Below are positions 52,601-58,393 of a DNA stretch of 64,000 nt, piece by piece. Position 1 is the first letter of the stretch, and each line of letters begins with the position of its first letter. A program made the position numbers and the translations under genes. The stretch is from Thermoplasmata archaeon (GTDB lineage: Archaea; Thermoplasmatota; Thermoplasmata; GCA-020350865), in the NCBI GenBank assembly GCA_020348445.1, contig CP070751.1, positions 3,843,765 through 3,907,764 of the forward strand, in the 5' to 3' direction. A model generated the notes under the pieces. The model did not search any database, was not told the DNA's origin, and saw only the letters and a list, made by a program, of their open reading frames with translations.

Positions 52601-52661
52601 CTTCAATCGTCTTTGAGAATGAAGATTCATATAAATCTAATTTGCTATCCATAATAAACAA

Positions 52662-52876
52662 TAGCTCCGGGCCGAAGAAATACGATATAATTGATATGTC
52701 ATTATATTTCTAGGCAAGGGGCTACTCTGGATGACGACTAGAAAAAGATAAAGAGTAGCTCCGGGCCGAAGAAATAAGACCTAATTGATGTTCTATTATA
52801 TTTCTAGGCAAGGGGCTACTCTGGGGGAAGACTAGAAAAAGATAAAGAGTAGCCCCGGGTGGATTCGAACCACCGC
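52662..52876 (-). repeat. Tandem array of tRNA-Gln 3'-end copies (two 94-bp units plus a T-arm/acceptor fragment)
   Basis: Plus-strand TAGCYCCGGG at 52662, 52756, 52850 and 52981; the units share TATATTTCTAGGCAAGGGGCTACTCTGG. Confidence 0.9.
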
Positions 52877-52980
52877 CTAAACCTTTTGGCATCTCCCTCC
52901 GCTGGGCAACCCCTCACAAAAGGTTTTAGGGTCATCCCAAAACTCGGGGTCGTCCTGCTCACTCGATGATAAATAAAGAG

Positions 52981-53054
52981 TAGCTCCGGGTGGATTCGAA
53001 CCACCGTCACGGGATCCAGAATCCCGCATGATTGACCACCTACAATACGGAGCT
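52981..53054 (-). tRNA. tRNA-Gln(CUG), archaeal type, A1-U72, discriminator A73
   Basis: AGCTCCG-TA-TTGT-AGGTGGTCAA-TCAT-G-CGGGA-TTCTGGA-TCCCG-TGAC-GGTGG-TTCGAAT-CCACC-CGGAGCT-A; TTTAATA box about 33 nt upstream. Confidence 0.93.
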
Positions 53055-53233: not shown

Positions 53234-54925
53234 TTAAGTTGTTTTTTGTTGCTGCTGTTTTTGAATCTTGGCCCATGTGTCCCTCAATCCGACGGTTCTG
53301 TTGAAAATCAGCTTCTCTGAGTTGGAATCTGGGTCCACACAGAAATAACCAAGTCGCTCGAATTGGATTCGATCCAACGGTTTAAGGTTCTTTACTGCAG
53401 GTTCTATCTTACATGATGTTAGAACTTCGAGGGAATTAGGATTAATGAAATCCTTAAAGTCCGCATCCTTATGTCCCGCGGGGTCCTTCTCTGTAAAAAG
53501 CTTGTCGTACAACCTAACCTCGGCATCCATTGCGTGGCGAGCTGAAACCCAATGCAATGTGGATTTTACTTTACGACCATCAGGTGCATTGCCCCCTCGC
53601 GTATCGGGATCCACGGTACATCTGAGCTCAACGACCTTCCCATTCTGTTTAATAGCCTCCTTGCACTTAACAAAGTACGCATATCTGAACCGCACCTCAC
53701 GACCTGGTGCTAAGCGGTAGAACTTCTTGGGAGGTTCCTCCATAAAATCCTCTTCCTCGATGCAAAGCTCCCTGGAAAAGGGTACCTTTCGAGTCCCTGC
53801 TGATGGGTCCTCTGGATTGTTTACAGCCTCCATCTCCTCCACCTTATCATCGGGGTAATTTTCAATAACCACCTTGAGCGGTTGAAGTACACCCATGAAC
53901 CTTGGGGCTGTTTTATTCAAATCTTCCCTTATACAATATTCAAGAAATTCGAAGTCAACCATACTGTTTACCTTGGCCACGCCGATTCGCTTGCAGAAAT
54001 TTCTAATTGCAGCTGGAGAATAACCTCGTCTTCTCATTCCGCTTATCGTGGGTAACCTGGGATCATCCCACCCATTGACGTGACCCTCATCCACCAATTG
54101 TTTGAGCATACGCTTGCTCATTACAGTATAGGTAATATTCAACCTGGCGAATTCAATTTGTTGTGGATGATAGACCTCTATTTGATCCAAGAACCAATCG
54201 TATAAAGGTCTGTGATTCTCGAACTCTAAAGTGCAGATGGAATGCGTGATGTTCTCGATTGAATCTTCAAGCCCGTGTGCCCAGTCGTACATGGGATAGA
54301 TGCACCATTTTTCACCTGTGTTGTGATGACTCGCATGTAGGATTCGATATACAATTGGGTCCCGCATATTCATATTTGGGTGCGACATGTCTATCTTGGC
54401 CCTAAGAACCTTTTCACCATCTCCAAACTCACCAGCCCTCATTCTTGTGAACACATCAAGGTTTTCTTCTATTGACCTATCACGATAGGGACTTTTCTGT
54501 CCGGGACTTGTAAGGGTTCCTCTTGTTCTGCTGATTTCATCTGCAGTTGAATCATCTACGTATGCCTTACCTCTTTTAACCAACTCAACAGCATAATCAT
54601 ACATTTGATCAAAGTAATCCGAAGCAAAAAAGAGCCTATCCTCCCAGTCAAATCCAAGCCATCTTACATCCTCGATTATAGATCTAACATATTCCTCTTC
54701 CTCTTTTGCTGGATTGGTATCATCGAATCTGAGATTGCACTTGCCCTTGTAATCCTCTGCTATGCCAAAGTTCAGGCAGATAGACTTTGCATGCCCAATG
54801 TGCAGATAGCCGTTGGGTTCGGGTGGGAACCTTGTATGAACTCGACCACCGTATTTATTCGTCCTTAGGTCTTCATTGATTATATCGCGAATGAAATCGT
54901 GAGCCTCTGCCTCTTCACTGGGCAT
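53234..54925 (-). CDS. glnS: Glutaminyl-tRNA synthetase, bacterial type
   Basis: [69 protein letters not shown]; AAGGTGA RBS before ATG 54925. Confidence 0.97.
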
Positions 54926-55075
54926 ATCTTTCACCTTAATGAGTTTGGGTTAGTAACATTTACTATTATAATTATTTTGTTAAAAGTTTTGATCTATGAA
55001 ATAAATATATTCACTCTCCCCTTACACACAAATATATATATAAAAAACAAATTCTGTTTTTATGGAGGTTAATAA

Positions 55076-55435
55076 ATGGCAAGAGTAGTACATTTCGATA
55101 TTAGTGCAGAAAATCCACAAGAATTGAGAAAATTTTATGAAACTGTTTTTGGATGGAGGTTTGAGAAATGGGAAGGCCCCATGGAGTACTGGATGATCAT
55201 GACAGGGGAGGGACCTGGAATCGATGGAGGAATGTCAAAGAGGGGAGAGCAGAACATGGACATAAATACCATCGACGTCCCAAATCTGGATGAGTTTATT
55301 CAAAAGGTTCAGGAAAAAAGAGCCACCATTGTTGCGCCTAAGATAGCTATTCCGGGAATTGGCTGGTATGCGGTTTTCAAGGATTCCGAGGGTAACATAT
55401 TCGGCATGATGCAGGACGACAAAGAAGCGAAATGA
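55076..55435 (+). CDS. VOC/glyoxalase family protein
   Basis: VVHFDI, FYETVFGW, IPGIGWYAVFKDSEGNIFGM; GGAGGT RBS. Confidence 0.88.
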   Translation: MARVVHFDISAENPQELRKFYETVFGWRFEKWEGPMEYWMIMTGEGPGIDGGMSKRGEQNMDINTIDVPNLDEFIQKVQEKRATIVAPKIAIPGIGWYAVFKDSEGNIFGMMQDDKEAK

Positions 55436-55464
55436 GTAAAAAGCCCCGGCCCCGAGAAACAGAT

Positions 55465-55770
55465 TCTATCAGCCCCGGCCTCTTCGTGCTTAAGAACCCA
55501 ACATATCCAAGCATAACACGAAGAGAAAGGGGCTGTTTCGTTTCTCTACAATTTAAATTAGAGAAACAGCCCCGGCCAGAATCGAACTGGCGCCAAGAGA
55601 TCCAAAGTCTCTGATGCTACCTCTACACCACGGGGCTATTTGGTTGGAACATTAATTCAGTCAAATAGCCCCTTCGTAGTAAGAAAAGCTTTGGGTTCTT
55701 GCTAGGTTTTCTTTTCTTCCTACCACGGGGCTATTTTACCACCACGGGGCTTCTTAGTTTTATTTATACT
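55465..55770. repeat. 406-bp-period direct repeat unit A (contains tRNA-Gln UUG)
   Basis: Landmarks recur at exactly +406: 55471/55877, 55529/55935, 55567/55973, 55662/56068, 55721/56127. Confidence 0.92.
55567..55637 (-). tRNA. tRNA-Gln(UUG), atypical, discriminator G73
   Basis: AGCCCCG-TG-GTGT-AGAGGTA-GCAT-C-AGAGA-CTTTGGA-TCTCT-TGGC-GCCAG-TTCGATT-CTGGC-CGGGGCT-G. Confidence 0.9.
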
Positions 55771-55870
55771 TTGATACGAATCCCCTTAGCATTAAGAAAA
55801 GCGTTCAAATTCTAATGGGAATTCTTTTCTTAATACCACGGGACTACTTTACTTTTATTTATTCAATTCT

Positions 55871-56176
55871 ACTTTCAGCCCCGGCCTCCTCGTGCTTAAG
55901 ATCCAAGCGTTTTTAAGCATAACGCGAGGGGGAAGGGGCTGTTTCGTTTCTCTACAATTTAAATTAGAGAAACAGCCCCGGCCAGATTCGAACTGGCGCC
56001 AAGAGATCCAGAGTCTCTGATGCTACCTCTACACCACGGGGCTATTTGGTTGGAACATTAATTCATTCAAATAGCCCCTTTGCAGTAAAAAAAGCGTTGG
56101 GATAGTGTTGTGTTTTCTTTTTTTACTACCACGGGGCTACTGCACTCTTAAACAACCTCGGGGCTTATTTGATGCA
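55871..56176. repeat. 406-bp-period direct repeat unit B (contains tRNA-Gln CUG)
   Basis: See unit A. Confidence 0.92.
55973..56043 (-). tRNA. tRNA-Gln(CUG), atypical, discriminator G73
   Basis: Same body as 55567-55637 except anticodon CTG and T-loop TTCGAAT. Confidence 0.9.
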
Positions 56177-56229: not shown

Positions 56230-57792
56230 CTATTTGGCTACTTCCCCGATTCTTCCCACAACAAATCCCTTGTCCAAGGTGGATAAAAAATAACCTAGCC
56301 TAGGCCCATGCTTCTGATCGAGTATTGCCTGATATACCAGTTGAAAGGCCGTTTTAGACTTGATATTCTGGATCTGAGCCAATTCATAAATCGCATTATG
56401 GATGGCATCAGGTGCCCATTCCTCTTGGGTGAGCTTGATTGATAGGTCTTCAAGGTATTTCTTATGGTCGGATTCCAAGGTTATCTTAGGAGTTTCCTTT
56501 GCGATTGAGAACTTAACCTTTTCAGGTGCAAAATTGTCAAGCCAGAACTTCACACATCCTATTCTCTGCTTTAGGTGATTCTCATCCTCTTTGCTGAGAC
56601 TTTCAAAATGCTCTGCCCTCTTCAAGATATCTAGGATTCCTTCAAAGTCCTCATTGATCTGAACAACACTTACAAGATGTCTATAAGGTATTTGCAAAGG
56701 AAGTTTAGAGGGAAGGGAAAAAGGCTGAGAGAGTTCATAGGTTCTCGCCAATTCCTCCTCAATCTTCTCGATTCGTTTGGACTTGTCATCTGCGCTACCT
56801 TCGAAATATCTTTTCTCTGTTGAGTCGTATTCGTCCACGAGGTTTAGAATTCCAAGGCCTGGATCAAAATCAAGATGCTTAATTGGATTGTTTCTAAGAA
56901 CAAAGTACCTGAAAACCTCGGGAGGGGTCATCTTAAGCATTTTGGCTGCGCTGATCACAACACCAGTCGAGGATGACATGGCACCCTTACCCTTTAACTG
57001 AATCCATTCGTAGACAACATATTGTGGAGCCTTCCTATCAAAGACCTCCTCTGAAATCCTCTTTGCTGTGTCGTACGATCCTCCAGCTGCTGCATGATCT
57101 TTACCAAAAGGTTCGAATGTAACCCCTAAAAACCACCACCTTGCAGGCCAATCAACCCTCCACGGTAGCTTGCCATCGTCTTTTCGCAAATCCGCTTTAC
57201 CTTCATGACCACAAGAGCAAGTATAATTGACATATGGAAATTCATAGCCAATGACCTTGGTTGTGGTAAGCCGCCCACATTCACTGCACTTCGGATTGTA
57301 AGGAAACCAGTCATCGGGAAGATCACGTTTTGAAATATCCTGGAGTATCTCCTTTATCCTATCTTTATTGTCCAGCACCTTTCTAGATGCCTCTGTGTAC
57401 ATTCCCTGAGCGTACATTTCATGGGAGAGAAGGACATTGGCCTCTATCCCAAGAGTTTTTGCAGCATCGAGAAATGGAGTAAGAAAATGCTCGGCATAGG
57501 ACTTGTGGCTACTGCATGGACAGGGAATTTCGGAGAGAGGTTTACCCACGTGCTCCTTATAGCTTTCATCTAAAAAAGGATAAACCTTACGAAGGGGGTC
57601 GATGGTATCGCCAATGTATATCAATTGGGCTTCAACATTCTTCTGTTTAAGACCCCGAGTTATTACCTCACCTGTAAGAATCTCCCGCATATTGCCAACA
57701 TGGATGTCTCCAGAAGGGGTAATCCCTGTAGCTATCACATGCCTTTCAGAAAAACTTTGGAGCCTCTTACTCTCAACGTCAACCCAGTGCAT
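56230..57792 (-). CDS. lysS: Class I lysyl-tRNA synthetase
   Basis: MHWVD, TGITPSGDIHVGN, GKLPWRVDWPARW, GKDHAAAGGS, MSSSTG, GPRLG. Confidence 0.95.
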   Translation of the reverse strand: MHWVDVESKRLQSFSERHVIATGITPSGDIHVGNMREILTGEVITRGLKQKNVEAQLIYIGDTIDPLRKVYPFLDESYKEHVGKPLSEIPCPCSSHKSYAEHFLTPFLDAAKTLGIEANVLLSHEMYAQGMYTEASRKVLDNKDRIKEILQDISKRDLPDDWFPYNPKCSECGRLTTTKVIGYEFPYVNYTCSCGHEGKADLRKDDGKLPWRVDWPARWWFLGVTFEPFGKDHAAAGGSYDTAKRISEEVFDRKAPQYVVYEWIQLKGKGAMSSSTGVVISAAKMLKMTPPEVFRYFVLRNNPIKHLDFDPGLGILNLVDEYDSTEKRYFEGSADDKSKRIEKIEEELARTYELSQPFSLPSKLPLQIPYRHLVSVVQINEDFEGILDILKRAEHFESLSKEDENHLKQRIGCVKFWLDNFAPEKVKFSIAKETPKITLESDHKKYLEDLSIKLTQEEWAPDAIHNAIYELAQIQNIKSKTAFQLVYQAILDQKHGPRLGYFLSTLDKGFVVGRIGEVAK

Positions 57793-57796
57793 TCTC

Positions 57797-58393
57797 TCAC
57801 GCAATCGTACGGGCTCTAATAAGCGATCTAGTGGGCACACCATCCATTTCGTACATAGGTGTCTTGTTCACAATAACCACGGACAACAAAGGATTGGCTC
57901 CCTGCTCCTTCAAATCGGCAATGGCACACTTCATAACATGTCCGGTGCTTATCACGTCATCCACAATTACTACATCCTTGCCCTCCAAGGTAGCATAATT
58001 CGAACTAAAGGTACCCTTGCCTTCATCGGTAACTGGTGGCCTGTAAATACCAAGCTCCAGTCCCAGATCCTCGGCAACCATTGTAGCAAAAGGTATTCCA
58101 TTAATTGCTATACCCACCACGCAATCCACCTTTTCTATCTCCTGCTTTTCCATCTCCTCGAGGATGACATCGGAAAACAAACCCGCTATTAAACCGATGC
58201 GACCTCCGTATACACCGATTGATCTCCAACCAACCTTCACATCTATGGGAGGCTTCTCAACCTTCACATTCCTTGTCAAAAGCCAAGATACAGTATCAAC
58301 AGAAAGGTGCAGTTCATGAGATATTTCACTCTCACTGAGACCGTTTCTCTTGAACTCTAGAGCCTTTTCTACGAGAGCATCGATACTTTTCAT
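57797..58393 (-). CDS. Orotate-PRTase-like protein with N-terminal HTH (GfcR-like)
   Basis: N-terminal EISHELHLSVDTVSWLL HTH, DVKVGWRSIG, FSSNYA, VIVDDVISTG. Confidence 0.85.
   Translation of the reverse strand: MKSIDALVEKALEFKRNGLSESEISHELHLSVDTVSWLLTRNVKVEKPPIDVKVGWRSIGVYGGRIGLIAGLFSDVILEEMEKQEIEKVDCVVGIAINGIPFATMVAEDLGLELGIYRPPVTDEGKGTFSSNYATLEGKDVVIVDDVISTGHVMKCAIADLKEQGANPLLSVVIVNKTPMYEMDGVPTRSLIRARTIA

Follow-up and report, generated by a model that had tools for sequence, protein, structure and literature searches.

Reviews published up to 2022 hold that no archaeon encodes GlnRS, attributing this absence to archaeal tRNA-Gln, whose A73 and A1-U72 are a mismatch for the GlnRS of bacteria and eukaryotes (PMC9499178; PMC7373986). 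The bacterial GlnRS identity set comprises G73, U1-A72, G2-C71, G3-C70, G10, U34/U35/G36, A37, and U38 (PMC9976931), A73 is the canonical discriminator of archaeal tRNA-Gln (PMC9499178), and GatDE reportedly recognizes tRNA-Gln by its first base pair (A1-U72) and its D-loop (PMC2811023). No description of an archaeal GlnRS, or of a tRNA linked to one, was found in the open-access papers and preprints searched.

The described systems closest to the locus presented here are the GlnRS/tRNA-Gln couple of E. coli (PDB 1GTR, 1QTQ; TIGR00440), the archaeal non-discriminating GluRS acting with GatDE (M. thermautotrophicus, PDB 2D6F), the bacteria that combine GlnRS with a tRNA-dependent amidotransferase (Deinococcus radiodurans, Thermus thermophilus, and Bdellovibrio; PMC4206432) and the pylS-pylT cassettes. 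The locus lies in the window (the whole 64-kb stretch of DNA that was analysed), which falls inside one 5.16-Mb contig of a member of the class Thermoplasmata. Its genes are the following:

52981..53054, minus strand: resident long-D-loop tRNA-Gln(CUG) with A73, U10 and a 10-nt D-loop (ARAGORN, Infernal, structural parse)
53234..54934, minus strand: glnS, bacterial-type GlnRS of 566 aa (TIGR00440, 755 bits; PF00749, PF03950, PF20974)
55076..55435, plus strand: glyoxalase-like ORF between the tRNA pair and glnS (PF00903, 23.3 bits)
55567..55637, minus strand: tRNA-Gln(UUG), short-D-loop type (ARAGORN, Infernal 59.9 bits, structural parse)
55973..56043, minus strand: tRNA-Gln(CUG), short-D-loop type (ARAGORN, Infernal 59.1 bits, structural parse)
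56230..57843, minus strand: lysS, class I lysyl-tRNA synthetase, upstream neighbor and synteny anchor (TIGR00467, 552 bits)

As in E. coli, the synthetase is a full-length, bacterial-type enzyme (718 bits against E. coli GlnRS) in which the residues matching Ile129, Leu136, and Arg341 are conserved, and the tRNA pair resembles E. coli tRNA-Gln in its YUG anticodon (including U35 and G36), G2-C71, G10 and the weakness of its 1-72 pair, to which this genome adds G73. The pair, whose scaffold is archaeal, departs from the bacterial identity set in having A1-U72 instead of U1-A72 (still a weak pair), C3-G70 instead of G3-C70, and, at positions 37 and 38, G and A instead of A and U, and from E. coli tRNA-Gln also in its 7-nt D-loop; the enzyme has Asn where that of E. 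coli has Asp235. Among canonical archaeal tRNA-Gln features, A1-U72 is present whereas A73 and the D-loop of 9–10 nt are not. The genome has also kept the archaeal GluRS, gatD and gatE in two copies each, and tRNA-Gln genes with a long D-loop, A1-U72 and A73. Unlike the substrates of the GluRS/GatDE route, the short type, which shares their A1-U72, combines a shortened D-loop with G73 in this lineage, and related lineages have dropped GatDE. The bacteria listed above likewise hold GlnRS and an amidotransferase in one cell, but their GatCAB serves Asn and they have one kind of tRNA-Gln, whereas the present genome combines a GatDE specific for Gln with two structurally distinct sets of tRNA-Gln. 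With the pylS-pylT cassettes the locus has in common that a synthetase gene lies beside the gene of its tRNA and that the two occur, or are missing, jointly; in contrast to those cassettes, the locus concerns neither a new amino acid nor a new codon, its tRNA stems from the recipient lineage rather than the donor, and orthogonality is putative.

The GlnRS and Its Origin

The score of the window enzyme lies far above the TIGR00440 cut-off (426 bits), and the catalytic and both anticodon-binding domains are present together with the motifs HIGH and MSKR. These motifs, the key residues and the full set of domains indicate an intact and complete GlnRS. Comparison with individual enzymes gave 739 bits for that of P. 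aeruginosa and about 490 bits for the human one. Homologs are labeled Thermoplasmata, Methanomassiliicoccales or Thermoplasmatales archaeon, and the nearest named non-archaeal relatives, at 66–74% identity, belong mostly to Planctomycetota and Chloroflexota. The archaeal sequences form a single clade both in a tree of 20 of them with 127 cluster representatives (support 100) and in one of 21 with the 59 nearest bacterial sequences (support 99), so that one acquisition of a bacterial glnS would be the simplest reading.

In E. coli GlnRS, Asp235 reads the 3-70 pair, and the classical mischarging mutant D235N is altered at this position. The window enzyme has Asn at the equivalent residue 240 and therefore scores slightly higher against the chain of PDB 1QRS, which has Asn at 235 in the alignment, than against the wild type. 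An archaeal adaptation to C3-G70 was considered, as 118 of 120 archaeal homologs have this Asn, and was rejected; Asn is the commonest state at this position among GlnRS representatives (30 Asn vs. 27 Asp), the nearest ones included, and is thus inherited.

The tRNA-Gln Genes of the Locus

Within the window ARAGORN detected three tRNA-Gln genes, all on the minus strand (CUG, 52980–53054; UUG, 55566–55638; CUG, 55972–56044). The scores of the upstream pair with Infernal against RF00005 (E about 1e-11, complete coverage of model positions 1–71) exceed the gathering score of 29, and each gene folds into a cloverleaf with UUG or CUG in a 7-nt anticodon loop with U33, as expected of Gln isoacceptors. 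Both genes are 71 nt long and share the acceptor pairs A1-U72, G2-C71, and C3-G70, discriminator G73, U8, G9, a D-stem GUGU/GCAU (hence G10), the D-loop AGAGGUA and a 4-nt variable loop; position 34 (U/C) and position 59 of the T-loop (U/A) are their sole differences. In the short tRNA of a congener (G002; G, L, f, and g denote genomes, loci, families, and genera) the anticodon stem is preserved by a compensatory change from A29-U41 to G29-C41. The scores of about 60 bits and this compensatory change argue that the pair represents real tRNAs under structural constraint.

An earlier note on this DNA had described two 71-nt tRNA-Gln genes upstream of glnS on the same strand, alike except at position 34 and one T-loop base, with A1-U72 yet G73 and G10, with C3-G70 in place of the G3-C70 of E. 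coli, and a further tRNA downstream of glnS with A73, U10 and a 10-nt D-loop. Gene prediction, alignment and structural parsing bear out this description, and the distance to glnS, estimated there at about 640 nt, is 632 nt from the UUG gene to the start of glnS.

This gap holds the glyoxalase-like ORF (119 aa, opposite strand), for which the spacing between tRNA and glnS is too small in the other archaeal loci examined. The order lysS, short tRNA, glnS, long tRNA is also found in two genomes of family f22 (G155 and G279), and the position of the long-D-loop tRNA-Gln(CUG) downstream of glnS is common to families f1, f15, f21, f22, and f29. The arrangement between lysS and the long tRNA seen in genus g34 thus recurs in the window, enlarged by the inserted ORF and by a 406-nt tandem duplication; the duplicated unit carries the UUG gene, and its two 268-nt copies are 90% identical.

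Each tRNA of the pair is accompanied by hairpins of 66 nt:

55470..55535, minus strand: hairpin downstream of the UUG gene, equivalent to that at 55876..55941
55667..55732, minus strand: hairpin upstream of the UUG gene, equivalent to that at 56073..56138
55876..55941, minus strand: 66-nt hairpin downstream of the CUG gene, ending with a copy of the tRNA 3' end, GGCCGGGGCUG
56073..56138, minus strand: 66-nt hairpin upstream of the CUG gene, starting with a copy of tRNA positions 1–11 and ending in GGGGCU

The upstream hairpin is conserved in the genus with three compensatory pairs, and the downstream one, represented by eight copies in five genomes, also has three. These elements, which flank each short-type tRNA within positions 55442–56167 and have further copies at 55782–55857, start or end with the tRNA's own acceptor strands; they can thus be described as acceptor-stem mimics, and are kept in five genomes of the genus. 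The stretch 52654–52951, downstream of the long-type tRNA-Gln(CUG), holds two tandem units of 94 nt, each with acceptor-strand copies, and then 49 nt that partially copy this tRNA in its T-arm and 3' acceptor strand.

A Short-D-Loop Class That Travels with glnS

Across the class, it is a tRNA-Gln class with a D-loop of 7–8 nt that tracks glnS, and not G73. This short class was searched for with a pattern combining a D-loop of 7–8 nt with the tRNA-Gln scaffold of Thermoplasmata; the conserved acceptor and D-stem are needed for a match, so that a very divergent tRNA-Gln (e.g., that of f6) could escape. The pattern matched in 40 of 301 class genomes, against one match for the reversed control, and glnS occurs in 40 of the 301. 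The short class is present in 36 of the 40 glnS-positive genomes, comprising 33 found by the pattern, two with acceptor variants outside it (G117 and G145) and one in which the gene is partly masked by N (G029). The remaining four (G011, G016, G080, and G207) have tRNAs with a 9-nt D-loop beside glnS and no short type. Seven matches come from genomes without glnS; five represent the short class (5 of 261 glnS-negative genomes), all in 61–83% complete members of the glnS-bearing families f9 and f17, and the two from the glnS-lacking f25 were discarded as tRNA-Glu(CUC). In all tRNA-Gln read from genomes of glnS-free families the D-loop has 9 nt. The short and long classes also differ at pairs 29-41 and 50-64 and at position 46. 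The acceptor of the short class, AGCCCCG, is that of the tRNA-Gln of Thermoplasmata itself, unlike that of bacterial tRNA-Gln.

Physical linkage is equally pronounced. A tRNA-Gln adjoins glnS in 21 of 22 archaeal loci vs. 2 of 58 loci of the nearest bacteria, and the linkage is on this ground an archaeal innovation; usually the short tRNA lies 0–65 nt upstream of glnS on the same strand. In genus g34, G155 and G279 have lysS, a short tRNA(CUG), glnS and a long tRNA(CUG), whereas in G176 lysS is followed after 232 nt by a long, intron-bearing tRNA, with neither glnS nor the short tRNA, and both are likewise absent from the lysS/long-tRNA site of G057. The short tRNA and glnS thus appear to have been gained or lost as a single block of about 1.9 kb. 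Related genomes are not independent observations, and this is the one clean within-genus contrast found; much of the co-occurrence of glnS with the short class could be shared ancestry. A genome from the genus of the window's own genome that seemed to have glnS without the short tRNA and gatD (G029) was set aside as a counterexample, as the 5' part of its tRNA is N-masked and a gatD fragment and two gatE genes are present.

G73, G10, and U10

Approximately 130 tRNA-Gln genes gathered across Thermoplasmata allow positions 73 and 10 to be compared. G73 is the resident discriminator of tRNA-Gln with a 9-nt D-loop in f14, f19, and part of f18, and in f14 and f19 it was seen for both anticodons; these three families are without glnS (0/5, 0/33, and 0/3) and all have gatD. 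With identical sequences counted once, 19 of 45 tRNA-Gln of the short-D-loop type and 17 of 47 of the long-D-loop type have G73; for G10 the corresponding figures are 44 of 45 and 44 of 47. The tRNAs adjacent to glnS carry A73 in f9, f15, f20, f21, f22, and f23, which include the GatDE-lacking f20 and most of f9. Since G73 resides in families lacking glnS, and A73 is found on most glnS-linked tRNAs, those of lineages without GatDE among them, G73 is neither required by this GlnRS nor peculiar to it; f20, with A73 genes only and no gatD or gatE found, implies that the enzyme works with A73. The occurrence of G73 in GatDE-only relatives also means that A73 does not define the family within this class. 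G73 and G10 are thus best regarded as inherited lineage states rather than as the adaptation.

The earlier note had interpreted the pair as archaeal tRNAs remodeled at G73 and G10 for the imported enzyme, and proposed to check whether G73 tRNA-Gln accompanies glnS across Thermoplasmata. This interpretation does not agree with the comparison, as G73 resides in the GatD-bearing families without glnS, G10 is nearly universal, G73 is divided almost evenly between short and long types, and six families have A73 beside glnS; the note had itself named an equal frequency of G73 in glnS-lacking relatives as counterevidence, and this is what the class displays. Its more general idea, a distinct tRNA-Gln tied to the imported glnS, holds in the linkage and co-occurrence of the short-D-loop class, and fails in taking G73 and G10 as the mark of that tRNA.

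In the GlnRS tree the short-type tRNAs with G73 map to one sub-clade. This sub-clade includes the present genome, and all four genomes in it for which both types were seen (G000, the genome studied here; G002/L128; G029/L129; L133) combine a G73 short type with an A73 long type. U10 is found in the long type of G000 and L133 and in one long-type gene of G002, and is missing from that of G029 and from the second gene of G002. A role of U10 as an anti-determinant against GlnRS was considered and is weakened by this inconstancy within the genus and by the presence of U10 in tRNA-Gln(UUG) of f16, which lacks glnS.

Genomes with One or Both Routes

Besides GlnRS, GluRS and the duplicated gatD and gatE, this genome has a second long-D-loop tRNA-Gln, with anticodon UUG, A73 and U10, at genome positions 223988–224062. 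Both anticodons are thus present in the short as well as in the long type, giving two full sets of tRNA-Gln; in this respect the earlier suggestion that two parallel routes of Gln decoding may coexist is supported by the gene content. The gatD/gatE paralogs are located at genome positions 3724387–3729503, 4116284–4117471, and 2877665–2879575, one pair being divergent neighbors, and the presence of two gatD genes in the glnS-lacking f10 indicates that this duplication is not tied to glnS.

Two further tRNA-Gln genes occur elsewhere in the genome. A bacterial-type tRNA-Gln(UUG) with U1-A72, G2-C71, G3-C70, G10, and G73 (L126:7964–8035; genome 1131963–1132034) belongs to a prophage-like region, where it neighbors a P22-like portal gene, and was not found in 20 relatives. 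On these two grounds it was rejected as a partner co-transferred with glnS; a virus-borne tRNA of bacterial type would suit the bacterial-type GlnRS of the host. The other is part of a dense array of 19 atypical tRNA genes (L125:4571–7567; genome 4640571–4643567), in several of which ARAGORN predicts introns, the longest of about 76 nt; this member, itself intron-bearing, has a 7-nt D-loop and an unusual T-loop and can be read as a tRNA-Gln(UUG).

In the class as a whole gatD was found in 271 of 301 genomes, a tally that, like that of the long-D-loop pattern, includes two unpublished glnS-negative genomes of f11 (G097 and G211), used for class-wide counts only. Among glnS lineages it is scarce in some, with 0 of 5 genomes in f20, 0 of 2 in f29, and 3 of 13 in f9, and no gatE was found in the three f20 and f29 genomes examined (0 of 2 for f20). 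In f20 the sole tRNA-Gln genes found are two short-type A73 genes that flank glnS, and the short type seems to be the only one retained in f20 and f9; the long-D-loop pattern, which also picks up tRNA-Glu, was for that reason used only for absence in f20. In f29 GatDE was not found while long-type tRNA-Gln genes are kept, so that GlnRS probably charges both types there, and this family would argue against strict insulation of the two tRNA types.

Long-type genes in f15 and f29 that looked like pseudogenes proved to be intact genes with an intron in the D-loop. These introns of tRNA-Gln(CUG) are about 28 nt long in f15 and f29, that of G176 has about 20 nt and occupies the canonical 37/38 site, and ARAGORN miscalls the intron-bearing genes (L013:1284–1400, L093, L062, L228:606–702). 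In glnS-carrying families the first pair is broken in several tRNA-Gln genes, as A-A in G033, G103, G138, and G152 and as A-C in G016 and G183 (L090, L094, L212, L213, L015/L145, L062), and some of these genes also encode the CCA end; disruption of the 1-72 pair should favor GlnRS and disfavor GatDE.

Weighing the Explanations

Taken together, the genomic evidence shows that a separate tRNA-Gln class with a D-loop of 7–8 nt is linked to glnS, and makes it probable that this class is archaeal-derived and that the pair in the window are GlnRS substrates that provide a direct route beside GluRS/GatDE. A single bacterial glnS would have entered Thermoplasmata, the short-D-loop class would then have arisen from archaeal tRNA-Gln, and the short tRNA would have stayed physically attached to glnS ever since. 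In the common layout, one short tRNA just upstream of glnS on the same strand, both are probably part of one transcript; in the present genome the tRNA would have been duplicated with a switch of anticodon, and the opposite-strand ORF inserted before glnS. The pair is most likely charged directly by GlnRS in one step, and the ancestral GluRS/GatDE route here probably serves the long-D-loop tRNAs. As GatDE reportedly recognizes the D-loop along with the first pair (PMC2811023), any discrimination between the routes would most plausibly reside in the shortened D-loop. The short type keeps A1-U72 and GatDE-only relatives use G73 tRNAs, so that the pair may also enter the indirect route. The stricter proposal that in this GlnRS sub-clade there are two insulated pools, short G73 tRNAs charged by GlnRS only and long A73 tRNAs via GluRS/GatDE only, is considered doubtful; if true, it would represent an intermediate stage at which a horizontally acquired synthetase with its own evolved tRNA is displacing the ancient indirect pathway.

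Other explanations have to be weighed against a dedicated class. It is rather unlikely that the pair are redundant copies whose proximity to glnS is a historical accident, with both types feeding both pathways without preference. Redundancy of tRNA genes is common, both types retain A1-U72, f29 keeps long-type genes without GatDE, and the co-occurrence lies mostly between related genomes; this account is at odds, however, with a linkage maintained over at least 10 families at tens of nucleotides, with the gain or loss of tRNA and glnS as one block within a genus, with the loss of the long type where GatDE has been lost in f20 and f9, and with distinct class signatures kept in the same genomes over long divergence. 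That G73 and G10 were installed on archaeal tRNAs for the imported GlnRS, creating an orthogonal pair beside an A73/U10 set for GluRS/GatDE, is improbable. Both nucleotides belong to the E. coli GlnRS identity set (PMC9976931), the four genomes with both types share the G73/A73 division, U10 marks the long type of G000, L133, and one gene of G002, and the confinement of G73 short tRNAs to one GlnRS sub-clade implies a state long kept. Against this stand the G73 tRNAs of GatD-bearing families without glnS (f14, f19, and part of f18), the A73 short tRNAs that serve the GlnRS-only lineages f20 and f9, the near universality of G10, the erratic distribution of U10 (present in f16; among long-type genes, missing in G029 and in the second one of G002) and the departure of C3-G70, G37, and A38 from the bacterial set. 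A mobile element that integrated into tRNA-Gln with glnS as cargo, leaving the tRNA copies and acceptor-stem fragments as scars, is very improbable indeed: the block directly adjoins the resident tRNA-Gln(CUG), both tRNA ends, 5' and 3', recur around the genes as 11-nt copies and the block is an indel within g34, but the fragments, unlike simple direct repeats, form hairpins that are conserved and show compensatory changes, gene order is constant across families, and searches of Pfam, NCBIfam, and PHROGs found no integrase or mobile-element genes beside the block.

Implications for Thermoplasmata

With a dedicated short-D-loop class as the preferred reading, the barrier between tRNA-Gln and GlnRS would have been crossed once in Thermoplasmata, and the transfer of glnS would have been accompanied by a dedicated, physically linked class of tRNA-Gln. 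GlnRS would work with A73 tRNAs in lineages that later discarded GatDE, and the natural series of genomes with GatDE only, with both routes and with GlnRS only makes the mismatch hypothesis directly testable.
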